Of a stretch of 64,000 nucleotides of DNA, positions 26,714-48,562 are shown in pieces; positions within the stretch are counted from its first letter, which is position 1, and each line of letters starts with the position of its first letter. Source of the DNA: Nemertoderma westbladi (taxonomy: Eukaryota > Animalia > Xenacoelomorpha). The stretch spans positions 19,828-83,827 of the forward strand of contig JAUCBJ010008823.1 of the NCBI GenBank assembly GCA_032718475.1, written 5' to 3'. Under the pieces are notes generated by a model. That model saw nothing but the letters and a program-made list of their open reading frames with translations, had not been told where the DNA came from and searched no databases. Both the position numbers and the translations under genes were made by a program.

Positions 26714-28639
26714 TATTTGAAGAGACAGTAACAATACCTGCAATATCTTACTGTAAAGTTTGTGAATCAAATCATAAATCCGACCTTCTCACCAAAACAG
26801 TAAACTCCAAGTAAGCGACTATATTGCAGTATCGATCTCTTATAACCGGTGAGGCAGAAAACAGTCTACGAGCAGACAAACTTCGATAAAACAAAATCCC
26901 GCGCAGCGAATCCTAAAATCAGGCTGACTCACTGACGGACTAAGAGGCTCGTATACTTTGCCGCGGTGTGATTTATATGGTTGGGCAAAAGAGACGCTAG
27001 CTAGGTGCAGAGATTTGGAGATGTCTAACTAGCGGGCAAAGCGCAGTACGGACAAAAGTTAAATTTTATATATTTTGAGGTGTAAATAATTTCTAACGCG
27101 CGCGTGTGTTAATTCTAAACGGTCAAAGCAGTTTTGCTCCTTCATATATATAATTACTGGGTACGGTGTGCATTTTACAAATATTCTAATTTTGTAACTT
27201 GTAGGTCCAATACTCACGAATGATAAGGCTCCTTCCCCTCTTGCGTATTTCCAGGACTCAAATTCAGGCATAAGGTTAATGCTACGCCCAGAATTCGGCA
27301 ATTTTAATTTACCAGGCCCCTAATACTAAGAAGAAATGTGTTAGTTTACTACAGTAGGCGTACTGTTACTAATAGCTAGCCTGGCGTCCTATCTAGAATT
27401 TTGGTTACCTAGGTGGGCTTGGTAACTTCCTATCAGGACGTTGGCGGGGACACGGTAGATGTTAGTATATCCCTAATAGCCTCAATTTATTTGCGCCTAG
27501 TCGTAAACTGCCCTACCGCCTGAACGGTACAATCCCAATTCAGGTGAAACACAGCAACCCTCCTGGCCTACAAGTTCTAATGCAATGGACACCGTTGTAC
27601 TACAAATAGTCGCAAACGCACCTGTACTTAGCAAGAGTTAGGCGTACAGTTTGCTGCACCCTACCAATGTGTATGCTTTGTACCGGTGTGCCTACGTCCT
27701 ATCTGCGTACTAGTATCTCTGCCTGCTCTCCCCCCCCCCGTAGGAATATGAAGGTCTACTGCGGTTTTTTCCTGAATTAAAACGGTACAGTCCCTAAGAT
27801 GTAATTTTAGGCTTACAGCGTGTCACTACTTCTACCTTTGATCTTTGGTCTTACGCTTAGGTAGCAAGGCATCGAACGCTGTCTAACCTTTCAGGCGATG
27901 GGCGAATAACTAAGATGGTATTGCGGGTTGTCTCCTGTCTACATTCCCTTGATGTTCCCGTTCATTGCTGCGGCCCGATCTCTAGCCGGCCATCCTGTTC
28001 CTAAGTGTGTTCACCGTAGTGAATCATGGTGAAAAGAAAATGCAGGTAGCGGTATTTCTGAATTTATTGCAGATAATAATACAAAATGTAATCTGAAAAC
28101 TAATGACAGAATAAACAAATATCAGATAACTCAGAATAATTGTGTAAGTGAAGAGTTAAGATTGAGAGATTGAGAAGTTGAGAGATTGATAACTAATGAA
28201 CGAATCGCACCTTTATATAGCAAATTTGTGCTGCAATCAATCGAGAAAATTCTCGATTGTTCTATAGGTTCTAACAGGTTTTTAAAGATAGCTATTGGTC
28301 CAGCTAATATATAACTTGCACGACATTGGTTACAATCTAATAACTGCAGTCTCATTGGTTAATCTAGGTACAGACAAATACAATTTAATTTGTAGCGGTC
28401 AATTTAAATGAGTTGAAATTCTGTACAAAATATAATTCGCACTTACTAGGATTCGAACTCAATACACACTACATATAATTTCCAACGCTCTACCGACTGA
28501 GCTACTGAACCACTTGAACAATAGGCGTACAAATAGATATAGTAAATACAAATGAGGACTTAATGTAATCTTTAATAAAGTTAATTCGAATAAAATAAAA
28601 TTTTGAAAATCCACGGCATTTAGGGAATATAATTCTATA
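26714..28639 (-). repeat. 3' LTR (1926 bp)
   Basis: Direct repeat of 46833-48756. By eye it differs by about 2 substitutions and 3 indels (1 bp, 5 bp in a C-run, 8 bp). Confidence 0.95.
28446..28511 (-). ncRNA. tRNA-derived A-box/B-box cassette in the 3' LTR
   Basis: GGTTCAGTAGCTCAGTCGGTAGAGC...GAGTTCGAATCC. The D and T arms are tRNA-like but there is no acceptor stem. Confidence 0.6.
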
Positions 28640-28646
28640 CCACTCC
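28640..28646 (-). other. Candidate short polypurine tract
   Basis: GGAGTGG immediately upstream (element sense) of the 3' LTR. Confidence 0.4.
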
Positions 28647-29370
28647 ATGAAAACAGGATATTATCGTGCATAAAATATACGGTTTTCACCAATAATCAAT
28701 CAAACTATAGAATACTTAGGGCGTACTTACGTATTTACAAATTAAATTTCAAACAATACTTCCTTTCTACATAATGATTCGATACAAAAATAATTACAAA
28801 TTCAAACTTTACATATTTGAGGCTTTACTAAGTAAGTACAATATAAATCTAAATTAAATTCACCAATATAAATCTATTGCATCTCAATATTGCATAAATT
28901 CAAATAATTACAAATACTTTCGTGCCTAAATGTAGATTGCATAAGTTCGGAATAATTACAAATATGAGTCTTTCTAAGCACAAAACTTTCTAACTATAAA
29001 ACTTTCTAAATACAAAATATAACACTTTACAAATGAAACTATAAGAAAGGCCCACGAGTCTTCCATCTACTCTTACTTTCTATTTCACTGTAAATACAAA
29101 TACTGCTTATAAGATATAAATTGCATAGTATTCGGAACAATATAAATTGCATAAGTTCGGAATAATCACAAATATAAAATAATAATCTTGCAAAATATAA
29201 ATTCTTACTAAATATAAGTCTTACTAAATATAAATCTTACTAAATATAAATCTTACTAAATATGAGTTTTCCAGAATACAAAACTTACTAAATATAAAAC
29301 ATATAATTCAAATAAATCACAAATTCACAAGAAAGGCTCACGAGTCTTCCGTCCACCCTTGCCCTCCCTT

Positions 29371-30148
29371 TTATCGCTTAGTTGATCGAGCCCTGCCGCG
29401 TCCTCGAAAACTGCGCACAGGGGACTTTGCTCGCGATATGGGACTCGTGGGGCGAGTCACTGGTTTCGCTTGGACGTTGAGAGACGGTGCGACTATTTCC
29501 TCGCAAATTCGTCTATTTGGCATCCCAAAACCTCGACCGATTCCTCGTGACCGATCAGTTGTCACTACAGTTGGTAGAACGTCTGGGAACGCGCGGGAAG
29601 CGGACGACGCAGACCCAAGAGTAGCTTGCGCCCCCTTTTGATCAGCTGGTGTATGTCCCGATCCTCCTGTTGGTTCTCTAGGAAGCGATACCGTATCCCG
29701 AGTAATTCGAATGGTCGGCTCAGCTCCCTTGCGTTCTTCTATATTAATAGACTTCTTTAACTGTTGGCCCACTTTCTGGACCCGTATGATCCTACCCTGT
29801 CCGTCCTCCCGAGGGTGACGTGCAGACGGCGCAACCGGAGTGGCTGATATATTTGTCGCCTCTAGGACCTCCTCTTCCTCGAATACGCTCGCTCGTATAC
29901 GTTTGTGGTAAAACGCGGCTCGGTACGCCCATGCGACGGTTAACCAAGCTCCTTTATTCCGCTTCTCAGTTCGGAAACGATCGAATTCACCATACGTGAT
30001 GCGATTAACGACTTTCTGAAAATTCCACGTGTTTTTGTTATCCGGGTGAATCTGTAATAGATACTCGCGCACTACTCAGAATCCACTGTCGTGGGGCAAA
30101 ATATCGACTACCTCGATAAGTTCGTCATATTGGGGCATAGCGGAGATG
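29371..30148 (-). pseudogene. Disrupted accessory ORF of the LTR element, with a basic RG-rich C-terminus
   Basis: The 233-aa ORF ends RSFRGRGRARSTKR. Its frame extends upstream through one TGA (30076-30078) to the insertion junction at 30148/30149. Confidence 0.55.
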
Positions 30149-31520
30149 TATGGTGGCCGACTGCTGCCACATAAACCATCAATGTCTAATAAAAATAATC
30201 GGTTAAAAAATCAATAAAAAAATTCAATAAAAAAAATTTCAATAAAAAATTTCAATAAAAAATTAAATAAAAAAAATTTCAATAAAAAAAATTAAAAAAA
30301 AATTCAATAAAAAAAATTCAATAAAAAAATTCAATAAAAAAAAATTCAATAAAAAAAATTACAAAAAAATTCAATAAAAAAATTCAATAAAATAAATTCA
30401 ATAAAAAAATATGTTAAATTTTTTTCTGAAACCCACCGTGGCCTACAGCTGCCAGGTATTCATTTAATACTAACCACTGCAGTTATATTATACTGTATAG
30501 GTGGCAGTACTCGGCCACAGCGAAATAGAAAAAAAAATTGCAAAGTAAAATTGAATTCACACGTGGCCGACTGCTGCCAAATACTTTCAAACACATGGAA
30601 ACATGGCCTACAGCTGCCAAAATGTGTATTTCCTGCAGTATCATTAACTAACATACTGTTTTGCTGTACCGGTAGGCTTCCAGTATCCTGTAGTTCGAGA
30701 TTAGTTTCAGTATTCCGGTACTGAAATTCAAGCTACGAGCCTACATCAGTAGGCCTACATACAAATCTTGTAGGTACAATGCGGCAGCAGTGATCAGGCC
30801 CGGGACGGTAGGTAATTTAAGGGTTTCTGCTAATAATGGCATGGAATAGTGATTATGGTTTAAAATCATTTCTCAGTGAAGCTGTTGCGCAAAATTGGTC
30901 TAGAAAAGAGTTGCTGCCTGCAGCAAAATCTAAATTTGGTCAGTATCCTTGGTCAATGAGAAGTTTGGATCGGCGTCTGAAGTTTTTTGAAATCAGTTAC
31001 ATCAATTATAATGTTGATATTCAAACTATTCGCAAGGCTTTAAAGAAGGAGATGGAGGGTCCTGGAAAACATTTAGGATATAGAGCCATGAATTTGAAGC
31101 TTCGCACTGTTTACAATATATGTGTTCCTCGTGATATTGTATATGAAATAATGAGAGAAGAGTACCCGGATGTGCTGGAAAAACGACGACTAGAAAACCG
31201 TAAACGGGTCCGCACTGGAGCTTTCAATTCAAAGGGCAGAAGGGTCCTTTGTGGTTAGTATCCGGGGATGGGCACGATAAATTGTGCGGTTATCAGAACT
31301 CAACATTCAGCTACTGTATTTATGGTTTCCAAGATTCGTATTCAAGAAAATTATTACTGCTGAGAGTTATGAAGTCAAACTCCTGTCCTAAGGTTATTTC
31401 GCGACTGTATATTGAATTGATTACTACTTTGCAGTATTGCATGCCTGTTTTTCTTCGATTTGATAAAGGGACTGAAACAACAACAATGGCGATAATGCAT
31501 TCTTATTTGCATTCGATAAG
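30149..31520 (+). mobile_element. Truncated IS3EU-like DNA transposon nested in the LTR element
   Basis: Begins TATGG at 30149 with ggcc(g/t)ac(t/a)gctgcca subterminal repeats. Frameshifted transposase in ORFs 30836-31258 and 31249 onward (LGYRAMNLKL; DGHDKL...IYGFQDSYSRK...LRFDKGTE). No right TIR found. Confidence 0.65.
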
Positions 31521-32288
31521 TAGTAGGAGAAGCATAGCCCTCGGCCAACTCCTCCCTAGCCTGGGCTACGGGCCACATCTCAGAGGGCTATTAAAAATGC
31601 CAAATTTCGGTGCTAAATTGCGGTGTTTAATGACCATCTGTCACCAACAGTATTGATGCCTTCAACCAATCGCTGCGTATCACCTACGCGTAGCCTAACC
31701 TCACGATGCCTACCTTACTCGACAACTGTTACCACTCGCGAGTATTGATTCGCGTCGTTGCATCAACCAACCATCGCATATTCATCTTCGCGTACCCAAA
31801 CTTCTCATCGCATGGCTAGCCCCCACTATGCTATTATATCGAATCGATTACCAACTCACCACGGCTACTCTTCGACGGCTGTCACCAAACCAACCAACCG
31901 AGCGGCCTACCAGTCCAGCAGTAGGATACGTGTTGAAATTCCGCCACGTTTCCGGCTACACGTATACGAACATTTCCATAGTTATTTCCTATCCATGCAA
32001 CCAACCACTGTATACTGTATATGCAGACAACGTGGCCACCAACTACACGCATCACGCATATATTATATTGATTGCCAACTCCACAACTGCTGTCGCCAAA
32101 TCAACCAACCAAGCAGTATGATACATGAGATTCCATCACGTTCTAGCTACGTGTATACGAGCATTAGTGATTATTACGCAATAATTTTTTTTGTTTATAC
32201 AGTAGTTACCCACCAGCTAATCAACCAATCAATAAACCGAATTTAGGCTATTTTCCAGTTTAAGACCTGTATTATTTTTGAAAATATC

Positions 32289-34670
32289 TTATATATAATC
32301 TCTTGCTTTAATAGAGATGTATCCTTCCGACATCATCGTTTGGGGATTTACCGCCCAAAATCCAAGATGCGCCCTCATCGGAAATCGTCTTCTTTGTGCC
32401 GATACATGTTCGTCGGCTAAATCTTCCCACTCATCGAATAATTTTCTCACGAGTTTTACAGATTCGTGTTCATAGGGTATGTCTCTTAGTTGGCATTCAG
32501 ATGCTCGATGCCCTTTTATATTGCAATAAGTACATTGAGCCATAAATCTCCAGCAAGTATAAAAGGTATGAGACCCTTGATCTCCACACCATCCACAGAT
32601 TAGCTGAGTCGTAGTAATGTGCTTTCCACTGCACTTGGTCGAATGATGTCCAGCGACGCCACATTTACCACACATCGTATTGGCAGGGTACCACACTCGT
32701 TCGTATATAAGATCTCCAATCGGTCGAGCGCTTCCTCCCACACTATAATCGTAATCATCTGGATCTATGGGTTGGTAGGTTTCTGAGGGTTGTATACAAA
32801 CTATAGCATCTGTTGCTTCAAGTTGTCGAATCTCCGTCTGAGATTTCTTCGGGAGGTTCCTTTCTATCTCAAGAAGTTCCTCTAAAGGATCGTCAGTGAT
32901 CGTAGTAGTTACTTCGAAATCATCACCAAGGTGACCGATAGGCGCGCGCGTCTGCCGTGATTCATCCGTAATCTCCACGATACGTTCTCCTTCATAGGGT
33001 AACAATGTAAACATAGATGGTCTTTCGATAAGAGATCCCGCACAGCGAAGATACACGTCTCGAAATATACTAAATCCTGCTCGAGTAAAGGCATTACACT
33101 GAGCGTCGGAGTTGTAGAAGGGTTCAAGGAATCGTCTAAACACGTCGGTATGAATTCTCCCTTCCATGTAGAACGTATGATCTTCTCCGAGACAAAGTGG
33201 ATGTCTTTTGAGAGTCCGAGACACAATGTCGGCGATTAGGCAAACATTCACTGACGACTCTATTGCTAAATAATATTGTAGGACCGCTCTTGGAGGTGAC
33301 GTAATAGCCCAATACACGCATCCTCTCCATTTAAGCTGTGATTCAAACTCACTCATATCTGGAGTATCACCTTCTCCATAAGTCTCAATATACTTGGTTC
33401 TCTTACTTTCCTTATAATCCCAATTGAATAACAGGTAGGAAATGTATCCAGTTCCAGTCTTCTGAGTATTATACTCACGAAAATATCCCTGTTCTATAGA
33501 CCACAAAATAAGAGGTCGAGTGTCGACGTAAGGTGTCGGTAGTCGGTCATCGCTGTCCGTCATGCCGGCGAAGTCGCTAATTAAGTCCTCCCTTACTCCT
33601 GATCCAATCTTTACAACAGTTTTATCTAAAATCATGTTTCTTACCATCTTCGGTAGCATTCTAGCGTCGATATTACAAGCTTGGTCCATCTTCTTTACTA
33701 TGTCAGTGATAAGATGGTGTCGCTTTGTATTCGCTGGAGGTATCGGCATTCGTTTGTCGCTCCTCTGTCTACTGAAAATGTGCAGGACTCCGTCCGCCGC
33801 TCTAATCTGTACAGTCTTAGAAGTCAAACTCTGTTGATGACTGCCGCCCTCGTTATCGTAAAACATGTAACCATTTTCCTGAAACGATCTAAACGTCCTA
33901 TTCCATTTATCCAACAATTCTTCCGAAGGTTGCCAAATCTTCTCTATGTCCTTATCATCTTCGAAACGAATAACCTTACCTCGCCAATCCGCGGCAATGT
34001 CTGTATCCGACTCGAAGGTTCCGGTTCCAATCCATAAACGAATCGTCTTGGTTAAATATCCTTTCAAATTACTCGGAGCTATATCGGCACCAGCTCTATC
34101 CAGTTCCTTAAAGTCTTGAATATGAGGTGGAACGTTGTACACGACCTTTTGAGTAATATGTCTACGTAAATCATATATCTTACTCATATCGCTGAAAACA
34201 ACTGCAGGAAGAAACTCCAAGTTTGAAATGATTTCTGGATGATCCACGATGGGTATTTCGTACGTCGTATCCTGTCGGACTGGTATACTAATAGGAAAAT
34301 TGAGTGTCGTACTCAATGGTTTCGTAGTCGAAGTACTATATGGTTGCATTTCTCTTGTCCTCTCCGGGGATGCAATCTGTAGTCTCTGAATAACGTTTTG
34401 AGCAAAGTTTATGCTCTCGAAAACTTCCGGTGTCATCTCCTTAGCTGGGGTTTGATCGTGTGACGTCCAATGGTAAGGTAGGCTCGCGAGTCTTCCGCCC
34501 CATTCTTCCATCTCACCTTTCTCGAAAGCCTTGTAGGCTCTGTATAGGCTAAGAGCTTCTTTCTTTTCGCGGGTTGACTGATTTGCCTCGTCCAGCGTAA
34601 GTTCAAATACATCGGGTTCAACAACCTTAGGTGGGTAAACGACAGTTTCTCCCGCCTTTGGTCCGGTCAT
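32289..34670 (-). CDS. Accessory protein: DEDDy-like 3'-5' exonuclease domain plus three C-terminal CCHC zinc knuckles
   Basis: MFYDNEG (Exo I), LPKMVRNMILDKTVVKIGSGVREDL (Exo II), YVDT, QYYLAIE (Exo III-like). Knuckles CGKCGVAGHHSTKC, CGWCGDQGSHTFYTC and CTYCNIKGHRASEC. Confidence 0.75.
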   Translation of the reverse strand: MTGPKAGETVVYPPKVVEPDVFELTLDEANQSTREKKEALSLYRAYKAFEKGEMEEWGGRLASLPYHWTSHDQTPAKEMTPEVFESINFAQNVIQRLQIASPERTREMQPYSTSTTKPLSTTLNFPISIPVRQDTTYEIPIVDHPEIISNLEFLPAVVFSDMSKIYDLRRHITQKVVYNVPPHIQDFKELDRAGADIAPSNLKGYLTKTIRLWIGTGTFESDTDIAADWRGKVIRFEDDKDIEKIWQPSEELLDKWNRTFRSFQENGYMFYDNEGGSHQQSLTSKTVQIRAADGVLHIFSRQRSDKRMPIPPANTKRHHLITDIVKKMDQACNIDARMLPKMVRNMILDKTVVKIGSGVREDLISDFAGMTDSDDRLPTPYVDTRPLILWSIEQGYFREYNTQKTGTGYISYLLFNWDYKESKRTKYIETYGEGDTPDMSEFESQLKWRGCVYWAITSPPRAVLQYYLAIESSVNVCLIADIVSRTLKRHPLCLGEDHTFYMEGRIHTDVFRRFLEPFYNSDAQCNAFTRAGFSIFRDVYLRCAGSLIERPSMFTLLPYEGERIVEITDESRQTRAPIGHLGDDFEVTTTITDDPLEELLEIERNLPKKSQTEIRQLEATDAIVCIQPSETYQPIDPDDYDYSVGGSARPIGDLIYERVWYPANTMCGKCGVAGHHSTKCSGKHITTTQLICGWCGDQGSHTFYTCWRFMAQCTYCNIKGHRASECQLRDIPYEHESVKLVRKLFDEWEDLADEHVSAQRRRFPMRAHLGFWAVNPQTMMSEGYISIKARDYI

Positions 34671-35285
34671 AGCAAATGAATGATATGGATTCTATAAAGG
34701 ATACCCTCCTTCCTGGTAGCGTAGTTGTTGATGGTTCGAACACCTCGCCAATATCGGTTCGGGATTTTCCTTATTCAAACGCATCGGAATCGCATTTCGT
34801 TGTTCGCGCATACAAGAACCGCATTGATAATAAAGTTTATAAACTGAAAATGCTTCCTTGGTTTCTCTATCGTCTGTAAAGGTGCATTCCATCGAATTCA
34901 TCGCGTACCGCGGGCATAGGTTCGTGCGCCTTCAGGTATTGCATGGTATGATACAAACGACTAATTTCAGTATCGGGGTCTTCGCTAATGTCTCCCGTAT
35001 CACACAAAGCGTCGTACGGGTACAGTTCATTGAAGGTTTTGCGCAAACTTTCGATTCTTTCATTTAATGCGTTTTGTCTTCTCTTTAATACATTTGAGTC
35101 ATATTTAGTTCTCGCGAGTTTCGCTGTACTTTCTGATAATTCTTTTATACCAAATATAGTGTAGTCCTTGGCTCCAAATCTTTCGAATGGTGCTGCTGCC
35201 TCCTCTTGGATATCATATCCCCATCTCGGCTCTCCTTGTATCCCCTTTTCCATAATTAGAGGTGTAGTTACATAATCATTACTAC
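34671..35285 (-). pseudogene. Interrupted N-terminal extension of the exonuclease ORF
   Basis: ORF 34901-34692 is in frame with the 793-aa ORF across a single TAG. ORF 35253-34867 overlaps it in another frame. A CTAAC/pyrimidine/TAG acceptor-like site lies at ~35285. Confidence 0.5.
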
Positions 35286-35915
35286 TAGAGGGAATACAAC
35301 AGAGTTTGTAGTTAGTTGTGAGGAGACGTGAGAGTTTCGTCTGCCCTTTTGGCTCGACAACGCTCTAACCTCCTACCCATAGCCTAAGATCTAGGGTTTC
35401 TTTAATGACACGCTGCTTCTTATCTAAAATTTTTTGCCGAAATAAAAAACGAATTTGGGCTAAACTGGCTGTGAGTCTAAAATACTCACCTTTTGATCCC
35501 AAACTATTATCAGAAAATAAGCAATCAAGAATTAGTAATAAATATAGGGGAGTCTATTTATTGACGTAACTTATTGAAACAAGACCGTGTAAAATTTAAT
35601 TAAAATTTTAAGAAAGGCTCGCAAGTCTTCCTCTCTTGTTTCTCTAATTTTAAGTTCCACCCGACTGTACCCTGAAATCTATTCACTGGAGAAAATTTTA
35701 AAATTTTTCAAATCCAAATGGATTGTCTAAAATTTCGAAAATGTCTCAATATTGTGAGTTCCAAGTAGAATTCCATTTCTTATACCTACAAATCCCGCTC
35801 CTATGTGACACATAAGGGTACTACCCTCAATGTTCACATATAAAAGACAATGGAATTCTACCGCTGTCCTTACTACGGTGTACAGGTACGTGGAAATCTA
35901 TTTGTAAACTCCTAA

Positions 35916-38900
35916 TTATTTACTAATATTAGTTGGAGATTTGTAGTCTCCAGACTCGTTACGAGTCTCTTCAAGAAGTACGAGACGTTGAGTCGGTCTG
36001 TCTACTGTACGACCGTCAATTGTCCGTACCGTTACATTTCTTGTCACTCCATCCATAGATGGATGTGTGTCTAAAATTACACCTGTTATCCAGAAGCGTC
36101 TTTTTAGATTCACTTCTGCTAACAGCACGTGATCTCCCGGCTTTAATGCGCGGGTGTTATTGTACCAGTTTGTTCTGGCAGAAATAGAGGGCAAATAATG
36201 GTTTTGCCATATTTCCCAGAATTTGTTAGCTAGTAGTTGCGTGATTTTCCACGCTTTTCTACCGTAGCTATCGCCTTCCATTGGAATAGAAATAGGCGTC
36301 AAAGTTGTCGGTGCCTGCATAAGCAGGTGTGCCGGTGTCAAAGCAAACTGAGATTGTTTGTCATCGGGTACTAATACTATTGGTCTAGTATTTAGTATTG
36401 CCTCGATTTCAACAAACAGTGTTGTCAGTTGGTCGTCTGTCAATATGTGGTTTACTGGAATGACCTTTGCCATTGCCGTTTTGATAGATCTAATCAATCT
36501 CTCCCAGACTCCGCCTCTCCATGGACTATCTGGAGGATTAAACTTCCAAACAATCTTGTAAGGATGTAGTTCGTTTGAGATTTGATCATGATCTAATTTC
36601 TTAAAGGCTCTAGCAATCTCATTTCGAGCACCAACAAAGTTTGTCCCTTGGTCTGAGTACAAGCACTTCACTAGTCCGCGTCTAGCGATAAATCGCCGCA
36701 ATGCTAGTATAAACGCGTTGGTGGAAAGATCCATCACACGTTCAATATGAACTGCCCTACTGGACATACATGTGAAAATCAGTCCCCAGCGTTTTACTAG
36801 TATACGTCCACGTTTCGTATGTATGGGACCAAAGCAATCAATTCCAGTCTCTGTAAAAGGTGGTCTGAATGCTTGAAGTCGTGCTTGTGGAAGTTCACTC
36901 ATTTCTTGGGTACCTATTCTAGAATGTACCTTTTTACAAATAATACACGTACGTGTCACTGAACTTAACGCTTTACTGGGTCTAATTAATACAAATCTTG
37001 TACGTAAGTAGGAAAGACAGTGGTGTCTTCCAGCGTGTTTCAGATGTAAATGTGCGTCCAGTATCATTGCACGTTGTAGTTCGTGATGCTGTGGTATTAT
37101 TATTGGGTATCTAAAGTTTGTGTTAAAGTCAATGTTTTGAAGCCGAGATTTATGACAAATTAAGCCATTATAAATAATCGGACTCCAACTCAGTATTGGT
37201 GACGACTTGATTGGTTGACCTTGATTTATAGATGTGAATTCGCGCGCGAAATATCGCAGTTGGTAATGGCGAATTAATTTAATTTCACACCTGTCAATCT
37301 CAGCCAATGTAAGCCGACGTGTAAAGTCTCGTTTGCCTTTAACGTATTGTACAAAACGTACAATCCACGCTAATTTTCGGCAAGCGTTTGTCCAAGAGTC
37401 TGTTAAGTTTACAATACGGTCGACGTGAGTATTTGTGACGTCATCAGGTAAGTCAATGGAGAATTTGGAAGGTTTTGATTTACTAGAAGGGCCCACGGGT
37501 CCGCCGGTAAGTATTCCCTTGTTGACTGTTGATCCGTCCGGGTCTACAAGTAATTTGTCCTTCTTCGTCTTCTTACCTTGGTTGTCAGTACTTTGTAAGT
37601 CGATCGTTAATGGTGGTTTGAACTCTATGGGGTCAGTGGGTTTCGGTAAACTTATTTTTCTGCCGATATTAATCCCGGGTCTCACCATAGGTTGCAAGTT
37701 TGGTATGTCTCTTGAGCGCAAAGTAACACCTGTATTTACAATAGCGTAGGTACTACCCACATCTGTAATACATGAGGTTTCACCGTGCTTATGGTTGCTC
37801 AAGTGTGTCAAAATTGGTAGTTTGTCAATACAAGGCCGCTCCAATAGGGAAACTGCGGCTTTACTATTTGTCAATATGTTACTAGTGTCTGGTAGAACAT
37901 TTTGTGACATGTCTGGTAAAATGTTTCGCGGAACATCCGGCGAAATATCTAGTGATGTGTCTGGCAAAACGTCTGGTTGACCGTCTAGTAACGTATCTGG
38001 TTGTTTGTCAATAGAAGGCCGCTCCAATAGAGAAACTGCGGCTTTACTATTTGTCAGTATGTCACTAGTGTCTGGTAGAACATTTTGTGACATGTCTGGC
38101 AAAATGTCTGGTTGAACGTCTGGTAATGTGTCTGTTTGACCGTCTGGCGATATGTCTGGTGTAGAAAGGCTCGTAAGTCTTCCGTTCTTGACCTTTGAAG
38201 TTATCGCTTTCCATTTCGCCTTCGGTTTTTTCTTGAGTTTAGCCGCCGTCCTTTTCTTTGCTTTCCCTTTCTTTGGTTTTTTAATTTCCGCGTCTTTAGG
38301 GATATTGTTAGACTTGTTGTCGTATAGTGGCGGCCAATGTTGTATTGATCCCTGCAAGAACCGTGGTCCGTGCTGCCAAAATTCTTTGTTCTCCGGTTTA
38401 CAGAATTCCTCAGGCATCATTCCTCGCGACGCAATATCGGCTGGGTTTTGTGGTCCGGGACAATGTCGCCAATCTTCTTTTATTGAACGGTCTAGAATTT
38501 CCGCGCGACGGTTAGCTACGAATGTCTTGAATTCAAGTATGTCGTTGTTTATGTAAAATAAAACCAACGTCGCGTCAGTCCAATAAAATATCTGTAAACT
38601 TGACTGTAGTTCTGTCTGTATAAGGTTCACAATTGTGGTTGACAGGGTTGCGGCTTGTAGCTCAGCTCGTGGTGTCGTCATATACTTAGTAGGCATTGTT
38701 TTTGCCTTAGAAGTAATGAGCGAAACATCGAATTCTTCTGAGTCTACTTGTCTGCGCAAGTACGCTGCCACACCAAAGCCGTTGTCACTGGCGTCGGAAA
38801 AACAATGTAATTCCAAGTTGTCAGGAAATGTTGTTTGTAATGGAAAGTATACTCTGGGTATGGAATAATCCTCTAACGAAGATAATTCTGCCTCCCAGGT

Positions 38901-41900
38901 TTTCCATAAGTCCACTTGGTCTGATGAGATCGGCTCGTCCCATGTTAGTCCATCCTTCCAAATACTGCGCATATAAATTCTGGCTTGCAGTATTATTGGA
39001 CTGATGAATCCTAATGGATCGAACAATCGGCTCAATTTTGACAAGCATGATCTCTTTGTCAGTGTGTTTTCTTGACTGTCCAGTCTCACCTTCACTCGAA
39101 AGTTGTCCGTGTTTGGGTCCCAAAAGAGCCCCAACACCTTGGTCGTCGGTAGTGGTTCGAACTCTAGGTCTATGTCACCACCTCCACGCTCAGTCGTTCC
39201 GAATGAGTCTACTAATTCGGCACTGTTTGAGGCGAATTTGGTGAGGTTGAAACCTCCGCCCGCTAAGCAGTCCCGTAATTGATGTGCTACTGTTATAGCA
39301 CGTTCTACTGTGTCACAACTCTGTAAACCGTCGTCGACGTAAAAGTCACGTTCCACAATCTTAATTATCTCTGGGTCATACATGTGTTTCTGATCCCTAG
39401 CGGCTTGCTTTAGGGCGTACATCGTACAGTTTGGGCTGTCCCTGGCACCGAAAACGCGAACTTGCATTTGGTAAGTCGCCGGTGGTAGACTTAAGTCTCC
39501 TTCCGGGTACCAGAGGAACCTCAAACTGTCTCTGTCTCGCTCTAACGCTCTCACTTGGTGAAACATAGCTTCGACGTCGCAAGTAAAAGCTACTTGACGC
39601 TGACGGAAGCGCATAATCACCCCCATAAGATAATTATTCATGTTTGGTCCATCCATCAACTCGCTATTGAGGGACATTCCCTCAAACAGAGCCGCACAGT
39701 CATTGACTACACGTACTTTGTCTGGTTTGTCGGGGTGTCTCACGAAGTGATGTGGCAAGTAGTATGTTTGGTCAGTCACTATCTCCGGGTTAGTCATTCG
39801 GATAGCGTATCCCTTGGACAAATACGTCTCCATCTGAGTGTTATACTGCAGATGGGCTTTCTCGTCCTTTAATAGACGTTGTCGTATTGAGTGTAGTCGT
39901 CTTAAAGCTAGTGGATAGTTATTTATAAGTTTAGGACTTTGGCTACGCCATAACATCCCTACCTCATAATGTCCGTCTTTCGTCTGGCGGATAGTATCTT
40001 CCATGATCTTCAAAGATTGTTTCTCCTGTTCCGACATACATGGTTCGTAGCTACCAGGTTCAGCTGTATCTTGTTCTAACCACCTGATAGTCTTCTCCGT
40101 TAATTCTTTGTCCAGTGCAGCTTGTTCCACTTGATGATTTCTTAACGCGTCATCATCGATATCGACGGGTATTGTTGAGGTTATTGGGGTAGGTAGACTC
40201 GCAAGCCTTCCGGCGTTATCATCTGTCGTCGATGGAATCTCTGGCTGACTCGTCTTCTCCCCAAGTTCTAAACTCACCTGGTTGATTAGCTGCTCCTTGT
40301 GACTTATCATACTAGTTACACATCTGTCATGTTTTGTCAAATGTAGTGTAGTATGGTCCACGTCGTGTGAAAAGGAATGAATTGAATTTGTAGTTAATAA
40401 ACTACATGTACTTTGTACATCGTCTTCCTCGTCACTTATGTCTAGTGTGCGCACAGGCGCTCGAGTATACCACCCTATCGGTGTTCTACAGGCGTATGCG
40501 TTTCCCGCTACGACTGCCGATGGTCTGGTTTCCCACACTTGATGTAGGTTGAATTGGTCTGTCCCGATCAGCATGGCTACCGATCTATAATTGACAGGAC
40601 ATTCAGGTACACCAAGGTGTCTGAAATACTTACGGTCCTCCAAGGATTGTTCTGGGACAGGACCTAGTAGGTTACTAAAGTCCTTGGTGGCCGCAAAAGT
40701 CAAATCCTTAAAGGGTAACAAAGACCTCTCCTTTTCGCTGTGTTGCGATTTCGGAAGAAGAGTGTCTAAGTTTAACTTAACTCGTGTCACTGGTATTGCA
40801 CGTTGTCCGTGCATACTACTTACGGTGTAACTGACGCGCTTACCTTGTCTGAGATCCGTCACGACATCAGCTATCTGCTCATCCACGTAGCTGTGAGATG
40901 AGGCTGAATCCAGGATAGCGTAGATTCTCTTGCTCCCTTTTGTGCCAGTAATCTTAATCGGAATTACACTGAAACCCTTTAGTTGGTCAGTCGTCAGAAG
41001 CGCGATCGATGGTTGTTCGTCTCCATCTGAATATACGTCGTCGTCTTCCGACTCTTCGTCCGACGATCCGGATTGTTCTGAGAAGCAATCCTTAATATGT
41101 GTCACGAAGGTTGGAGTCATTTTCGATTCTCGATTCTTGTAGGCCGTATTACATTTCGCTGCTGCTTCCGGGTGTTCCCTGGCGAAGCGTTTTGTCGGCG
41201 TGTGGCTGTCTGTGTGGAGCAGACCGTCGTGGTTGCGTCCACAGGATGGACAAGTGTCGGTATTTGGGCAATCTTTGCGGACGTGTCCGTGTCGCGTACA
41301 CCGCCAACAAGAGTCCAATGGTCGTATCTGCAGCCGTCGTTCTTCCGAGTTTAACTCGCGAAACTGTCGACAACCTCTCAACTTGTGACCGATATACCGC
41401 TTGCCTAAATGCTCGCAGTATTGGCAGCTGCTGAAGTCTGTACTGAGTTGCTGTCTAGTCTGTTTTATTCCAATGGGCGCGGATACCCTACTACCGTCCG
41501 AGAATTGTCGTGTTTCCGTCAGTGTGGCGTAAGTGGCCGTCTTGGTGGATGTTGTCTGGGGTTTTTGTCGGTTTGAGGATGGCAAGGTGATTCCTTCTGC
41601 TATGATGTGCTGGTCAGTGTAGTTGGATCGAGTTTCTACCACTGCTTCCCTGGATATCAAAAGGTACACATCTTCCAGTTTTAAGAATCCACCCCGCTCT
41701 TCCCGCTGGTATTCGATCTTCCTCCACTCCCGACGAAGTCGATGGTGGAGTCGTCCTATGATCTTTAATAGGACTGTAGGGGTATTCCCGTAGTCAAGTT
41801 GTCCAATGGATCTCAAAGTAGTGATAGCGTTCTTTATTTCGTCAGCCAGTTTCAATAAGTCGACGGGTTTAGTAATAGCCCCTCCCTTACAGAGTTCCTC

Positions 41901-43343
41901 TATCACTGACCTGGCCATGCTGACTGTACCTCCGTAGATCGAAGTTAAACGATCGTACGCTAGTTCGAAGGCGTCCGGTACACCAATGAAGGTCTCCGCC
42001 AAACGTTTAGGTTCTCCCGACAACGTTTGAAGCAGGTAATTAAACTTCTCCCGTGATGTAAAGGCGCACACGGCGATCTGAGATTCGATATAGTCTACGA
42101 AAGTGTGCCAGTGTTTTGAGCTACCGGAAAACTTAGGTGGTTGTTGCACCGGTAGTCCTTGTCTAGCTGCGAATTTCGCTATTTCCTCGGCAACGTTCAG
42201 AGTTTCACGTCCTTGGTTGGTAATCTGGTTGATGTCCCTTCTTGGCGCTTTTCCCTGATACGAAGTATTGGTCGATGGTATTTGTCTTTGCAGAACCTTT
42301 GGGTTTCTATTGTGTTCGAATTCGGAATTTCTCGAACTGTCGGTGTGAACTTCCTCCAAGCGTTCCTCGATCTGGGCCAACTTGTTGACAACTGGTCGCA
42401 GAATGTCGGCAAACTGTTGTGAACTGATTGCGTCCGTTGGTTGTAACGCCTTCTGTGTTGGTGTATTTTGTGGAGGATTGTCTACAAAGGAGTTATCTGA
42501 ACGCTCGCGTTTATATTCATCGGCCGCCCCTGTTCTAAATACCTCGCGTTTCGGGTAATCCGATTCGCTCGAAGTACTACTATCATCTGGATATGGTGGT
42601 CGACGTGCTCGCGTCCATTGCGTCGTACGAATTCTAACGTTTCGTTTCGGAACATCGTCCACTGTTCTCCGTTGTTCGGTAGGCTCACAAGTCTTCCTCG
42701 AAGTCGTAGATTGCGATGTAAACTGGTTGAACGGTCGCTTATCCACTGGTCTCCGTTGTTCGGTAGGCTCACAAGTCTTCCTCGAAGTCGTAGATTGCGA
42801 TGTAAACTGGTTGAACGGTCGCGTATCCACTAGTCTCCGTTGTTCGGTAGGCTCACAAGTCTTCCTCGAAGTCGTAGATTGCGATGTAAACTGGTTGAAC
42901 GGTCGCGTATCCACTGGTCTCCGTTGTTCGGTAGGCTCACAAGTCTTCCTCGAAGTCGTAGATTGCGATGTAAACTGGTTGAACGGTGGTCGGACAACAG
43001 CGTTTGAATCCAAAGGCCTTGTAGGCCTAAACGTCATTGGGTACGTGTAGTGCGTAACGAGTTTTGGTGTCGAAGGTGGACTCACCTGTTTTGTCGTCAG
43101 TAGTGCAGGTCCAGTCAACAAACTACTACGATCTGTAATCGGTGGGTTACTTACCTTGACTTTCAAAATAGGCGACGACGTTGCTCTTGAATTTGTCCGG
43201 AATAACCAACCTGTGTTCCATCGCACCATGGATAGGAGAAATATCACTACTACCCGCAATCGAAACAGGTTCCTTAGTTGTAACTGGTGCGAACATAGGG
43301 GTTCACTTGTGTCTTTCTGGGCTCCTCCCCGAGGCGCACCCAC
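35916..43343 (-). CDS. BEL/Pao Gag-Pol polyprotein (2475 aa; true start uncertain)
   Basis: DUF1759-like Gag (PPKFSG...EKFNYL), triple zinc knuckle, protease ILDSAS, RT (LPHH, DVEAMFHQV, FYVDD), RNase H (FSDAS, PRAEL, NPAD), integrase HHCC and core (DCFGP, SDQGTNF, GGVWER). Confidence 0.95.
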   Translation of the reverse strand: MGAPRGGAQKDTSEPLCSHQLQLRNLFRLRVVVIFLLSMVRWNTGWLFRTNSRATSSPILKVKVSNPPITDRSSLLTGPALLTTKQVSPPSTPKLVTHYTYPMTFRPTRPLDSNAVVRPPFNQFTSQSTTSRKTCEPTEQRRPVDTRPFNQFTSQSTTSRKTCEPTEQRRLVDTRPFNQFTSQSTTSRKTCEPTEQRRPVDKRPFNQFTSQSTTSRKTCEPTEQRRTVDDVPKRNVRIRTTQWTRARRPPYPDDSSTSSESDYPKREVFRTGAADEYKRERSDNSFVDNPPQNTPTQKALQPTDAISSQQFADILRPVVNKLAQIEERLEEVHTDSSRNSEFEHNRNPKVLQRQIPSTNTSYQGKAPRRDINQITNQGRETLNVAEEIAKFAARQGLPVQQPPKFSGSSKHWHTFVDYIESQIAVCAFTSREKFNYLLQTLSGEPKRLAETFIGVPDAFELAYDRLTSIYGGTVSMARSVIEELCKGGAITKPVDLLKLADEIKNAITTLRSIGQLDYGNTPTVLLKIIGRLHHRLRREWRKIEYQREERGGFLKLEDVYLLISREAVVETRSNYTDQHIIAEGITLPSSNRQKPQTTSTKTATYATLTETRQFSDGSRVSAPIGIKQTRQQLSTDFSSCQYCEHLGKRYIGHKLRGCRQFRELNSEERRLQIRPLDSCWRCTRHGHVRKDCPNTDTCPSCGRNHDGLLHTDSHTPTKRFAREHPEAAAKCNTAYKNRESKMTPTFVTHIKDCFSEQSGSSDEESEDDDVYSDGDEQPSIALLTTDQLKGFSVIPIKITGTKGSKRIYAILDSASSHSYVDEQIADVVTDLRQGKRVSYTVSSMHGQRAIPVTRVKLNLDTLLPKSQHSEKERSLLPFKDLTFAATKDFSNLLGPVPEQSLEDRKYFRHLGVPECPVNYRSVAMLIGTDQFNLHQVWETRPSAVVAGNAYACRTPIGWYTRAPVRTLDISDEEDDVQSTCSLLTTNSIHSFSHDVDHTTLHLTKHDRCVTSMISHKEQLINQVSLELGEKTSQPEIPSTTDDNAGRLASLPTPITSTIPVDIDDDALRNHQVEQAALDKELTEKTIRWLEQDTAEPGSYEPCMSEQEKQSLKIMEDTIRQTKDGHYEVGMLWRSQSPKLINNYPLALRRLHSIRQRLLKDEKAHLQYNTQMETYLSKGYAIRMTNPEIVTDQTYYLPHHFVRHPDKPDKVRVVNDCAALFEGMSLNSELMDGPNMNNYLMGVIMRFRQRQVAFTCDVEAMFHQVRALERDRDSLRFLWYPEGDLSLPPATYQMQVRVFGARDSPNCTMYALKQAARDQKHMYDPEIIKIVERDFYVDDGLQSCDTVERAITVAHQLRDCLAGGGFNLTKFASNSAELVDSFGTTERGGGDIDLEFEPLPTTKVLGLFWDPNTDNFRVKVRLDSQENTLTKRSCLSKLSRLFDPLGFISPIILQARIYMRSIWKDGLTWDEPISSDQVDLWKTWEAELSSLEDYSIPRVYFPLQTTFPDNLELHCFSDASDNGFGVAAYLRRQVDSEEFDVSLITSKAKTMPTKYMTTPRAELQAATLSTTIVNLIQTELQSSLQIFYWTDATLVLFYINNDILEFKTFVANRRAEILDRSIKEDWRHCPGPQNPADIASRGMMPEEFCKPENKEFWQHGPRFLQGSIQHWPPLYDNKSNNIPKDAEIKKPKKGKAKKRTAAKLKKKPKAKWKAITSKVKNGRLTSLSTPDISPDGQTDTLPDVQPDILPDMSQNVLPDTSDILTNSKAAVSLLERPSIDKQPDTLLDGQPDVLPDTSLDISPDVPRNILPDMSQNVLPDTSNILTNSKAAVSLLERPCIDKLPILTHLSNHKHGETSCITDVGSTYAIVNTGVTLRSRDIPNLQPMVRPGINIGRKISLPKPTDPIEFKPPLTIDLQSTDNQGKKTKKDKLLVDPDGSTVNKGILTGGPVGPSSKSKPSKFSIDLPDDVTNTHVDRIVNLTDSWTNACRKLAWIVRFVQYVKGKRDFTRRLTLAEIDRCEIKLIRHYQLRYFAREFTSINQGQPIKSSPILSWSPIIYNGLICHKSRLQNIDFNTNFRYPIIIPQHHELQRAMILDAHLHLKHAGRHHCLSYLRTRFVLIRPSKALSSVTRTCIICKKVHSRIGTQEMSELPQARLQAFRPPFTETGIDCFGPIHTKRGRILVKRWGLIFTCMSSRAVHIERVMDLSTNAFILALRRFIARRGLVKCLYSDQGTNFVGARNEIARAFKKLDHDQISNELHPYKIVWKFNPPDSPWRGGVWERLIRSIKTAMAKVIPVNHILTDDQLTTLFVEIEAILNTRPIVLVPDDKQSQFALTPAHLLMQAPTTLTPISIPMEGDSYGRKAWKITQLLANKFWEIWQNHYLPSISARTNWYNNTRALKPGDHVLLAEVNLKRRFWITGVILDTHPSMDGVTRNVTVRTIDGRTVDRPTQRLVLLEETRNESGDYKSPTNISK
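42655..42985. repeat. 84-bp in-frame tandem repeat (4 copies) near the Gag-Pol N-terminus
   Basis: FNQFTSQSTTSRKTCEPTEQRRPVDTRP; period 84 (42721, 42805, 42889, 42973). Confidence 0.95.
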
Positions 43344-44503
43344 GAGGCAGACACCTTTCCACCACCCCTGGGGCCAGTCCGACAGATGTTATTATCAGAC
43401 CGGGCCAGAGGGTGGCCTGATGCTTCCCGGGTTCTGTTTTCGGTCCCCCGATCACACCAGCACAGCTCGTCGAACGTGTAGCCAGATGGGCGGCTACTGT
43501 CAACTTACTGTGGCCTGACTGTACATTGAGCCAACTCAAAGTATAACAAAGAGTCAACCGGCAGGTGAACCAGTCGATAGCGATCGAGCACCAAGGTCGC
43601 CCTTGGGCCTAACCGACGGTCTTGTCCCAAGCGGGCTTGCGCTACCCAACATGGAATATTGACACGTTTTCACCTGCCTCGCCGGCAATATTGAGGGGAA
43701 GTAAGTTCCACAAACAATATTGACTAGCTCGAAAGCTAGGAACAAGTAACCACTTACCCGTCCTGTACACGTGTACTCAACAGATGTTCACGAAATCAAG
43801 TACACTATGGTAAACACAAAATCTGACACATACCATGCACACACAAATGACATAATCGGGTAAGACAAAATCGGGGTCAAAATCGGGAAAGACAAAATCG
43901 GAAGGGACAAAATTGTATCGACCGGAGGCAAATCGAGAGTACTTTATTTTACCGACAGGGTAAAATAACTTTGTGTGCACAAAGTATGCTGGGGCGCAGT
44001 AAAGTATGGTCCTACTAATACCAGCGGCGTCTGGTCCAACTGACAAGGGTTCCCATACCCACTCGCAGTGGCCACACATACAATCACGTGTACTCACGTA
44101 CCCACAGCAACAGAAAACTCAAGACCCGACGGTTTATTCCAATGCCACCAAAGACCAAGTCAGCTGAACATGGAGACAATAACATATAGTATCAAAAAAA
44201 AAAAAAAAAAAAACGGAACAGCTGACGGTCAATGGAACCATCCAAGCCCCAAGCAAACTGCCACTGATCGCCCACATACAAAACATAGTTCACGCCACAT
44301 GAGCCACAAATCATGCCATGCCACCACCCCTACTGTGTACAGGACTGGCAGTACGGCAACAGGCCGACTAGGCGATACCACGGCACCATGGCAATTCATG
44401 GTTTGTTAGACACGAGGGCCTTCAGTGACTCCCTAGCACTATAATTCCAATTTAACGTGCCCCCAGACCCTCACGAGTCCGCCGCCGCCTGTTTCAAGCA
44501 CCC

Positions 44504-46023
44504 CTATAGAGACCTCACCTCTTTAGGTACTTGAGGGAATCTTTGACATAAGTCTTTAACTAATTGTCGTTCCCGTCCAGGTGCTCCTATCGAACCTTCC
44601 TTCATTCGTTCCTGGATTTGGCGGTGCCTTACCTCTATCTGGTCCAAATCATGTCCGTCACGAGATCTCATCGATCGATCGCGGGCTAGAAGATCCAGAT
44701 TTTCCTTGGCTTCGGCTAATTCTCTCGCCTTCTTCTCAAGTTCGAAACGAAGTTTAACTTCCTTTTCTCGTTGTTCCGTTTGTTGTTGTTGCGCCTCGAA
44801 CTCCGCTTGTCGTATAGCTGATTGAGCTTTTATTTGCCGTGTCTTCATCTCGACTCTGGCTTCTGAAACTAACCTTTTTCTTTCTACTCTGCCACTGCCG
44901 TTTGTCGCTCTAACTTGGCTGCTGCCGTTTGTCGCTCTAACTCGGCCGCTGCCGCTGCCGTTTGTCGCTCTAACTCGGCTGCTGCCGTTCGTTGCGCTAA
45001 CTCGGCTGCCTCCGCTTGTTGGGCAATGTCCAACTCTAACCTTTCCATTTCGGCTGCTTCGAGTTCGGCTTGTTCCTGCAGATGAGAGATTCTCGCTACA
45101 TTCGCAACACGTATTTTCTCTTCCTCCACCGCTGCTTGTATCATTAGCAGTTGAGTTTGTTCTTCCATTTCGTGTTGCTGTCTGTAGAACTGTTGCTGTT
45201 GTCGAGCAACTTCTGACGTGACCATACTTCCCTCGCCAATTTCGCTACGAATACTTACCAACGATTGATCCAGTATTCCCGGTGCCGATTCGATTCGTAC
45301 GGGTGAAGTTTCCCTCGTATATTCCGGCACGGTTTCCAAATCGCCGAAGTCTTCGCCGCACATACGTAAGTGGTCCGTCAGATGTTTCAATTGTCCATCT
45401 AGCCTATACAGTTCCTGTTCTTCCTCGGGTTGTAATAATTTGTCCGAAACTGACTCACCTAACAACTGGTCTGCTTGTTCCTGTTGTATCTGTCTAATCG
45501 TCGACTTAAACTGAATCAGTTTCTCTCTAGCGATGATTAGTTTCTCGAGGATTCTGAGTTGTGTGTCCATATCCTGTCTCTGTCTAGCTAGATCTTGTAG
45601 ACCAATTAGGTTATCCACGGACTTATGTACTTTACTTTGTATTCTAACCTGGAGGGTGTAGAACTCGAATCGAGACATCGGAGCGGTCAACTCGTCTAAT
45701 ATGCGATGGCCTTCCCCAATACTCCTGGTAATATGCGCCATGTATCCTCCAACGCTTCTAACCACACTCTCCTGGCTTCCTACTGAACTTACCATGTCCG
45801 TTTCCCTGTATCTAGGTTGCGGAACAGTTAGAAAGTCCTCGGTCCTGCCGTCGCCTCGTACTACGGCATCCGGTACTCCCGTTGGATGTACTGGTGACGC
45901 ACACGGTGTAGGTTCGGTAGGCTCGCGAGTCTTCCCCTGTAGTTCTTCCGCTGCTGACTTATCCGCGTCACATGAGTCATAGTCGGTAGGTGTATTCTTC
46001 GTATAGTCTTGTTTGTCACTCAT
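44504..46023 (-). CDS. Upstream coiled-coil ORF of the LTR element (~506 aa, split by a 1-nt frameshift near 44885)
   Basis: E/Q/A-rich heptads. GAG-TA-GAA in place of the neighbouring repeat pattern GAG-TTA-GAG; restoring one T joins the 379-aa and 114-aa ORFs (ELERKRLVSEARVEMKTRQ). Confidence 0.7.
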
Positions 46024-46821
46024 TTCGGTAGTTGTAAGTCAAGTAAAATGTGAGTGTCAAAGTATCGAATTTACCGTATTTATATCTAAACGGTACTAAT
46101 TACAGTCATATAAAATTAGCCTACCGGCCGATTTTATAGCAGATGGATAAAATTAGCCTATGCGGCCAATTTTACAGCAAATAAATGTCATGGTATAAGT
46201 ATATAATAAAATTAGCCTAGCGGCCAATTTTATAACAAATAAATCGGATAACGATATGCGTTATCAAAAGGTAAATTAAATACAATAATACGGACTAATT
46301 CAGCAATGAACAAAGAAATCATACGGAATGCATAAATACTTGAGACAGTGGAACCCACAATAATTTTAACTAATACGGTAATGCCTAACTTATTTATGCA
46401 ACTTTTCGAACTCACCCACTCCAATAATTCTCCAGAAAAACAGATTCCCAGATACAAACCAGACGTGAACCTTTCCGTTTTCAGCGTTGCGGACGAAGCG
46501 CGATTTTCTCAACCAAAGTTGTTGGGTTATCTATCTCCCAAACTTGCTAAACACGGTCTTGCTCCCGTTACAGTCTAGAAATGAGTTCTGAATCCTGAAA
46601 AACAAAAGAGTTAGGTTTTACTTTACGAAAATTTTGTACCGGTACAATATGGTATTTAAACCCTTTTAAACACCGGTATTCAATTCCAAAAAATTTTACA
46701 CGCGGTTCAAATCAAATTTTATTTCAAAAAATTAGCACTTAGCTAATCAAATATAAACTTTTACCTCAAAATACAAAATTTTCAAATAACTTTAGTCCTA
46801 CCGAACCGTAGTTCAGTAAAA

Positions 46822-46832
46822 CATATTCCTAC
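46822..46832 (-). other. PBS-position sequence GTAGGAATATG (non-tRNA type)
   Basis: Abuts the 5' LTR end, has no TGG, and is the exact complement of an 11-mer inside both LTRs (47865-47875, 27740-27750). Confidence 0.6.
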
Positions 46833-48309: not shown

Positions 48310-48480
48310 CTAATGAACGAATCGCACCTTTATATAGCAAATTTGTGCTGCAATCAATCGAGAAAATTCTCGATTGTTCTATAGGTTCTAACAGGTTTTT
48401 AAAGATAGCTATTGGTCCAGCTAATATATAACTTGCACGACATTGGTTACAATCTAATAACTGCAGTCTCATTGGTTAAT
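48310..48480 (-). promoter_or_regulatory. Putative LTR promoter
   Basis: Minus-strand CCAAT at ~48471, 48442 and 48411, TATATAAA at 48329-48336, and an Inr-like TCATTAGTT about 20 nt downstream. Confidence 0.5.
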
Positions 48481-48562
48481 CTAGGTACAGACAAATACAA
48501 TTTAATTTGTAGCGGTCAATTTAAATGAGTTGAAATTCTGTACAAAATATAATTCGCACTTA

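Follow-up and report, generated by a model that had tools for sequence, protein, structure and literature searches.

We describe here a 20-nt motif that recurs at 13 places along a long terminal repeat (LTR) retrotransposon in the genome of Nemertoderma westbladi. The element occupies positions 26714..48756, minus strand, of a 64,000-nt stretch of contig JAUCBJ010008823.1 (GCA_032718475.1, positions 19,828 to 83,827; hereafter the window, to which all coordinates refer) and is a BEL/Pao element of unusual length (22,043 bp, with an internal region of 18,193 bp), as established from its LTR pair, target duplication and Pfam matches. Eleven of the copies fit the motif pattern exactly and two are variants that keep the pairing. 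We conclude that the motif is real, selected and probably structured, and that, by analogy, it most plausibly works like the dispersed packaging or export signals of viruses. The evidence for the motif is stronger than a preliminary description, made from the letters alone, could show, and its mechanism is more ambiguous than was stated there.

Followed along the element from its 5' end, the copies lie on the minus strand, with the orientation of one being ambiguous. The copy at 45916..45935 (loop CGCG) stands in an N-terminal open reading frame (ORF) of 384 amino acids (aa) at 44884..46038, minus strand, divided from gag-pol by stops in this copy of the element, and is read there in the KTREP phase. 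Four copies with the loop UGUG (42930..42949, 42846..42865, 42762..42781 and 42678..42697) belong to an 84-bp tandem array of 3.9 copies at 42658..42987, which multiplied one motif site. The copy of ambiguous orientation, 40192..40211, falls in the linker between protease and reverse transcriptase (RT). It is followed by 38164..38183 in a lineage-specific linker between RNase H and integrase, with the loop UACG here and UGCG in other copies of the family, and by 37486..37505 (loop CGUG). The remaining copies are 35612..35631 (UGCG, non-coding), 34477..34496 (CGCG, read in the GRLASL phase of an accessory ORF), 32937..32956 (CGCG, in the same ORF), and the non-coding 29331..29350 and 29045..29064 (both CGUG, the latter with U.G at pair 8-13). 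Ten of the 13 are located in ORFs, and none lies in either LTR or between the 5' LTR and the first ORF. Counting the array as one leaves 10 independent sites. A low-copy insert in this copy of the element (30113..31521, with a candidate 9-nt direct repeat at its ends) widens the gap from 32937 to 29331 by about 1.4 kb; with the insert discounted, the largest gap between sites is 3.1 kb.

The preliminary description had counted 11 copies, all of which are real: each matches the sense pattern on the minus strand with 0 mismatches, as compared with a mean of 0.02 and a maximum of 1 match in 100 shuffles. The pattern was matched 22 times in total, the other 11 matches being the same sites read backwards with 1-2 mismatches. 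That count was short by the copies at 32937 and 37486. A sequence-only matrix built from the 8 independent sites then listed placed these two on top of all new sites (20.0 and 11.7 bits, the next reaching 8.6), with chance expectations of 0.0 and 0.08, respectively. A descriptor in which the loop and the 6-15 wobble were fixed and six stem pairs were free to vary gave 13 sense matches in the element, namely the 11 and the two added ones, whereas shuffles averaged 0.28; its further yield was 2 reverse readings and 3 low-complexity matches outside the element. A covariance model (CM) scored the added copies at E 1.3e-4 (32937) and 0.003 (37486). When retrained on all ten sites, the model found no fourteenth copy, and the new sites of a looser four-pair descriptor were at chance level. 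One look-alike at 37012..37031 (minus strand, loop CCAC; CM E 0.03, 0.28 after retraining) is doubtful and was not counted, as its loop differs and it sits in conserved integrase zinc-binding codons. The absence of the motif outside the element, claimed earlier, holds in the window, where the best outside position weight matrix score is 7.8 bits versus 29-35 for the copies and the best outside CM match has an E of 0.58. The claimed spread over three large ORFs, two reading frames and non-coding sequence was likewise borne out, as was the origin of four copies in the 84-bp repeat. Because the motif occurs in two codon phases and in non-coding sequence, protein constraint was rejected as its cause.

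Support for pairing is modest but real. Pairs 1-20, 2-19, 4-17, 5-16, 7-14 and 8-13 are kept in 60 of 60 cells over the 10 independent sites, while pair 3-18 is free and 6-15 is A.C at 9 of 10. Three double substitutions keep a pair: U-A to G-C at 8-13 in copy 32937, and U-A to C-G at 8-13 together with A-U to G-C at 4-17 in copy 37486. These are the first real covariation for the hairpin. Given the 3 and 5 departures of 32937 and 37486, the probability of keeping the pairs with that many double swaps was 0.025 and 0.002 in simulation. The covariation score of 0.228 was reached by 1 of 500 shuffles, a shuffle count that is not a probability. The keeping of A6.C15, together with three G-C pairs that never swap, points to sequence reading by a protein, and a second surface, read by its sequence, is suggested by the invariant G-C pairs that surround the mismatch.

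Family copies were compared in contigs from three DNA runs (X1, X3 and X4), in which depth does not equal copy number. In these runs the summed contig depth on the element far exceeds that on the insert (30450-31560), in X1 for example 26,000-86,000 versus about 370-620, which points to a multi-copy family. The pattern of variation favours the sense strand. Positions 2-19, 8-13, 9-12 and 10-11 alternate between Watson-Crick and sense-strand G.U pairs, with a private change at 38174 as the sole exception. Loop changes are C-to-U with both guanines kept, and the core shows 8 C-to-T states with G10 and G12 kept bar that one private change. Mutation bias fails to explain this asymmetry, because C>T and G>A are balanced family-wide (119 and 120 in X1). 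The tetraloop has G at its positions 2 and 4 in 9 of the 10 independent sites, the tenth being the private change: at 38174, the only motif-internal variant among the 40 of 929 variant rows listed, all remaining depth in X1, X3 and X4 carries the base that turns the loop into UGCG. The UACG loop is therefore private to this copy and the loop consensus is Y-G-Y-G, so that from the earlier list of loops CGUG, CGCG, UGCG and UGUG stand.

The three gag-pol copies that could be examined against homologues (at aa 1060, 1736 and 1962) have aligned residues in 0-3% of 29 homologues, a low-alignment class that makes up 20% of gag-pol residues 400-2480. They are confined to lineage-specific linkers, as expected for signals put where the protein tolerates them. 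Around 40192 there are 18 variant sites at 3% or more, of which 0 are inside the motif and three are just beside it (p 0.05-0.14). A further run, X5, guessed to be RNA, gave no contigs over 40100-40300. Joints at 35631-38365 (X1 and X3) and at 37986-35611 (X1) begin or end at motif edges; they suggest a low-depth, diverged relative in which the 20-mer at the 38164 site is unchanged. The roughly 180 nt of this putative relative upstream of the 38164 motif fail to align at 80%, and the 22-letter side is below the caution limit of 30.

Beyond this element, the motif appears to be lineage-specific. The preliminary description had pointed to a CM scan of BEL/Pao relatives as a check. Run over a set of distant loci from other hosts (the best 80 of 541, 547,602 nt, most of them 2-12 kb and partial), the scan did not find the motif, the best E-values being 0.07 and 0.22, and none of 15 descriptor matches in these loci, 4 of them on the sense strand, is consensus-like. 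No other dispersed 16-mer in these loci occurs in more than 3 clusters, as compared with 8 in this element. The exact motif was found 0 times in viral contigs, Rfam gave 0 matches over 26000-49500 at E up to 5, and the peptides that the motif encodes (GRL[AVT]SL, KT[RC]EP and EDSRAY types) are absent from 120 homologues. In a literature search with weak BEL/Pao and subscription coverage, and with transposable element (TE) survey supplements excluded, we found no report of such dispersed LTR-retrotransposon hairpins. Missing from the 80 loci, the motif looks lineage-specific in the same way as the orphan accessory ORF, a judgement from one lineage and mostly partial loci. This ORF (32289..34691, minus strand, 800 aa, downstream of pol) has three CCHC-like knuckles near its C-terminus (about 32412-32714). 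For its protein, a comparison with 6831 candidates 440-1400 aa long brought up no relative, nor did viral contigs, and its single-sequence structure prediction was unusable (mean pLDDT, the predicted local distance difference test, of 31).

Several known systems resemble the motif in part. In retroviruses, the two nucleocapsid knuckles of human immunodeficiency virus (HIV) type 1 grip loop guanines 2 and 4 of SL2 (GGUG) and SL3 (GGAG) (PMC7599994), and the N-terminal knuckle of Rous sarcoma virus (RSV) binds the UGCG loop of SL-C (PMC5035970). The motif shares with these nucleocapsid tetraloops a short stem and a four-base loop with G at positions 2 and 4, and the family loop UGCG is that of RSV SL-C. 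The retroviral hairpins are, however, single, stable and in the 5' leader, whereas here 13 near-identical weak hairpins are spread over ORFs and 3' non-coding sequence, and the leader position typical of retroviral psi is lacking. Single-stranded RNA (ssRNA) viruses use many dispersed short stem-loops for cooperative protein binding, as in MS2 with its translational repression (TR) site and pseudo-sites, and dispersed packaging signals have also been proposed for tobacco necrosis virus (TNV), hepatitis B virus (HBV) and alphavirus (PMC8472981). The likeness lies in the number of stem-loops over the genome. The viral sets differ in comprising one high-affinity site and degenerate low-affinity ones that are read by the capsid, while the copies described here are near-identical over 20 nt and the reader proposed for them is an LTR retrotransposon's zinc knuckle.

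Other parallels concern accessory proteins and self-complementary sites. CERV of Cer1 is an extra protein of an LTR element that has a zinc-binding loop and is needed for genomic RNA export (PMC10309623). The present case resembles Cer1 CERV and HIV Rev with its Rev response element (RRE) in the element-encoded extra protein, here a predicted zinc-binding one that might likewise serve RNA export. It differs in that the RNA target of CERV is undefined in the discussion of that paper, the RRE is one large structure, and the accessory ORF has CCHC-like knuckles with no detected relatives. Ty1 PAL1/PAL2 and the retroviral dimerization initiation site (DIS) are, like the motif, self-complementary including the loop when G.U is allowed and capable of passing from hairpin to duplex, but they occupy one or two 5'-leader sites and are not repeated genome-wide. 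In the Arabidopsis VANDAL21/VANC21 system, a TE-specific motif occurs in same-orientation, tandem-multiplied arrays and the TE encodes an accessory protein (PMC5735166). Here, 12 of 13 copies share an orientation, one being ambiguous, and only 4 of 13 lie in a tandem array. Unlike our motif, the VANC21 sites are 9-bp double-stranded DNA motifs, placed in non-coding parts of a DNA transposon and showing no hairpin covariation; a mainly non-coding placement is not found here, with 10 of 13 copies in ORFs. The placement of the motif is that of neither psi nor DIS/PAL nor VANC sites.

Tentatively, and at somewhat less than an even chance, we read the motifs as RNA tags, stabilised by protein and distributed over a giant RNA, to which the element's own knuckles would bind. 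The RNA would fold into a small hairpin with a Y-G-Y-G loop over a stem that contains an A.C or G.U wobble; as this hairpin is too weak alone, its folding would need protein. In the manner of retroviral nucleocapsids, two knuckles would hold on to guanines 2 and 4 of the loop, and the element's tandem zinc knuckles would coat the very long RNA end to end, the downstream purpose being perhaps cooperative compaction and packing, perhaps nuclear export. Transcript production, RT processivity and packaging capacity have been named as factors that limit element size (PMC6431247). The element offers two knuckle clusters, in Gag and in the accessory protein. As reader, the orphan accessory protein with its three knuckles has our slight preference: distant BEL/Pao elements lack both the motif and the accessory ORF, whereas Gag knuckles are general. 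This preference rests on one lineage. A more elaborate version is conceivable but doubtful, namely that this protein and cognate 20-nt RNA tags every 1-3 kb through linkers and untranslated regions make up a matched pair, a natural MS2-like tagging that would let a ~20 kb RNA be recognised as self, exported or compacted, perhaps with Tf1-like priming from its own 5' end as well.

A series of observations weighs against protein-read RNA tags. At -0.4 to -4.9 kcal/mol the sense hairpin is marginal, 9 of 10 sites fold better on the antisense strand, stem pair probability exceeds 0.5 in 1 of 33 folds (the 11 original copies with flanks of 20-100 nt), and no site folds better than its shuffles (0 of 10 at z below -1). 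The energy model credits neither an A.C wobble nor bound protein. The stem-tetraloop fold claimed in the preliminary description is hence backed by covariation and not by folding energy, and the covariation itself hangs on the two copies added in this analysis; moreover, as many pairs with double changes as were observed also turn up in 149 of 500 shuffles. Copy 40192 scores 23.9 in sense and 25.0 in antisense orientation (leave-one-out) and, as it does equally well inverted, may be an inverted copy. The claim of a single orientation accordingly holds for the other 12 copies, and the A.C to G.U change at 40192, which was said to keep the fold, does so on the sense reading only. A 9-nt in-frame deletion removes bases 1-4 of this copy in a subfamily that makes up 11% of the depth in X1, 42% in X3 and the sole contig in X4, although the bases brought in pair at 3 of 4 positions (a hand reading with gap placement assumed). 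X1, X3 and X4 contain derivatives in which ~2 kb of the accessory ORF is missing; two different deletions were seen, 32983-35098 and 33095-35114, both losing the 34477 copy and keeping 32937. The accessory knuckles themselves match weakly (zf-CCHC at E 0.051, below the cut-off; best hit RSV nucleocapsid at E 0.061), and the evenness of motif spacing is not significant (p 0.07). In RSV, UGCG could be changed to GAGA without reduced Gag selectivity in one in vitro assay (PMC5035970). Finally, with copies also 3' of pol, the motif would mark all element transcripts, including any spliced accessory RNA, and, unlike a classical psi, would not single out the genomic RNA. What stands of the earlier RNA-signal interpretation is a paired, sense-strand motif under selection; the shared orientation on which it drew is weak evidence and no proof of RNA function, because duplication preserves orientation and the VANC21 DNA sites share an orientation too.

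Two other readings, each of which we consider unlikely, draw on the symmetry of the motif. The copies might be RNA-RNA contact points like DIS or PAL sites but repeated, with Gag turning weak hairpins into duplexes, between two packaged genomes or within one RNA, that keep the giant genome in register or compact. If G.U pairs count, the sense strand of the 20-mer is complementary to itself from end to end, the loop included (10 of 10 sites pair at 9-12 and 9 of 10 at 10-11). Self-duplexes reach -8 to -25 kcal/mol as against the marginal hairpins, copy 40192 would form duplexes of -20 to -31 kcal/mol with any of the other copies, and Ty1 does dimerise via PAL1/PAL2 (PMC6844567). These energies are not specific, however, since any hairpin sequence makes a stable self-duplex, and the known DIS and PAL sites sit in the 5' leader. 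The kept A6.C15 and the non-swapping G-C pairs likewise indicate protein sequence reading rather than pairing alone. Protein-read tags and RNA-RNA contacts are not mutually exclusive. Comparably improbable in our view are double-stranded DNA sites, in which a VANC-like element factor or a host transcription or chromatin factor would bind the CpG-rich-core pseudo-palindrome in the integrated element. The two-fold symmetry suits a dimeric DNA binder, copy 40192 fits as an inverted site (the deletion subfamily better still, by hand reading), and VANC21 motifs are TE-specific and form one-orientation arrays multiplied in tandem, as in the 84-bp array (PMC5735166). Such sites would not need symmetric double substitutions, yet three occur with no broken pair; the core changes are one-sided, the placement of most copies in ORFs departs from the mainly non-coding VANC sites, and CpG is not depleted in the element (observed/expected 1.11). 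A hairpin in single-stranded DNA was considered and is disfavoured, DNA folds reaching 0 to -1.7 kcal/mol on both strands.

That a host RNA-binding protein reads the hairpins, for export, localisation or protection from silencing, in the manner of constitutive transport elements and with the element's knuckles uninvolved, seems to us quite improbable. None of the structural evidence distinguishes between readers, retroelements need their unspliced RNA exported, some of them doing so directly via host NXF1 (PMC10309623), and splice donor-like sites are present in the element; but no Rfam family matched, and a signal read by a host protein might be expected in other elements, whereas none was seen in the 80 distant loci from other hosts. 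Least credible are neutral relics of short internal template-switch duplications tolerated in linkers. In favour, orientation would survive duplication, the tandem array is the source of four copies, and a subfamily carries one copy in truncated form. Beyond the retained 20 nt, however, the copies have almost nothing in common in their flanks, the exact motif appears to survive in a relative with a diverged flank, and the changes keep pairs.

The host element itself is well delimited. Its ~1.9-kb LTRs (5' LTR 46833..48756, termini TATAG...AAATA; 3' LTR 26714..28639; both on the minus strand with zero motif copies) are 99.2% identical with 18.2 kb between them, and a clean 5-bp target duplication flanks the element on both sides. 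The gag-pol frame (35916..43388, minus strand, 2490 aa from stop to stop, identified by Pfam and knuckle-like motifs) runs in the order DUF1759, three Gag knuckle-like motifs, protease, RT, Peptidase_A17 region, integrase and DUF5641, such that DUF1759, Peptidase_A17, integrase (Integrase_H2C2) and DUF5641 stand in one polyprotein in BEL/Pao order. The RT-RNase H region is ~39-44% identical to proteins with the same Pfam set, the named ones mostly from marine invertebrates; the pol region has no close relative in the protein collection (best about 43-44% identity) and none in viral contigs. BEL/Pao elements typically have LTR termini TG...CA and a tRNA-type primer site starting with TGG. Both are missing here, as the termini at 26714, 28639, 46833 and 48756 read TA...TA and no TGG follows the 5' LTR, but these atypical features do not override the protein evidence.

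Further features of the element were noted. At about 37400-38300, between RNase H and integrase, lies a ~300-aa lineage-specific insertion with a lysine-rich stretch, PD repeats and two motif copies. Within the gag region, a non-coding stretch at about 43100-44500 has a long T run and a skew change and is possibly another insertion; a 9-nt repeat near it (43223/44383) may be chance. The 3' region holds two more small ORFs, 29371-30075 (234 aa) and 34867-35364 (165 aa), with no Pfam match at E up to 10. The insert at 30113-31521 has a 16-nt motif of its own in four copies (30154, 30439, 30564 and 30604) and an A-rich 13-bp array. A tRNA-like segment with box A/box B resemblance occurs in each LTR (about 48560-48628 and 28440-28508, minus strand); it was negative in ARAGORN, which found 0 tRNAs, and in Rfam.

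The 11 nt at the primer-site position (46822..46832, minus strand, no TGG start) have an exact complement within the LTR at 47865..47875 (minus strand, LTR position 882; also at 27750 in the 3' LTR), an 11-mer found in 11 of 20000 shuffled LTRs. An initiator-like context precedes this candidate self-primer, and AATAAA lies downstream of it at 47611. The Tf1 self-primer is also 11 nt long. The match and the lack of a tRNA-type primer site suggest that the element may prime itself in a Tf1-like manner. Self-priming has been described for Tf1/Sushi, Tcn1 and TAR elements (PMC6317226), and our literature search on the subject found no mention of 'bel pao'. Elsewhere in the window are a 57-bp array of 245 copies, 97% alike, at 6506-20449, with the minus strand open for 1196-1455 codons at a stretch; a DUF4682 ORF at 22734-23942 that runs into a 22-bp array of 93 copies (23960-25999); and a single adhesion-type G-protein-coupled receptor frame of 770 codons (GPS, 7tm_2) at 51403-53715, adjoining the insertion.

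Outside yeast, little is known of the ways in which LTR retrotransposons choose, export and package their RNA. A discrete, repeated and covarying 20-nt signal, present in one element together with two candidate readers, offers a small and directly testable system for these steps. If the accessory protein is indeed the reader, the two would form a compact RNA-tag/protein pair of a new kind.

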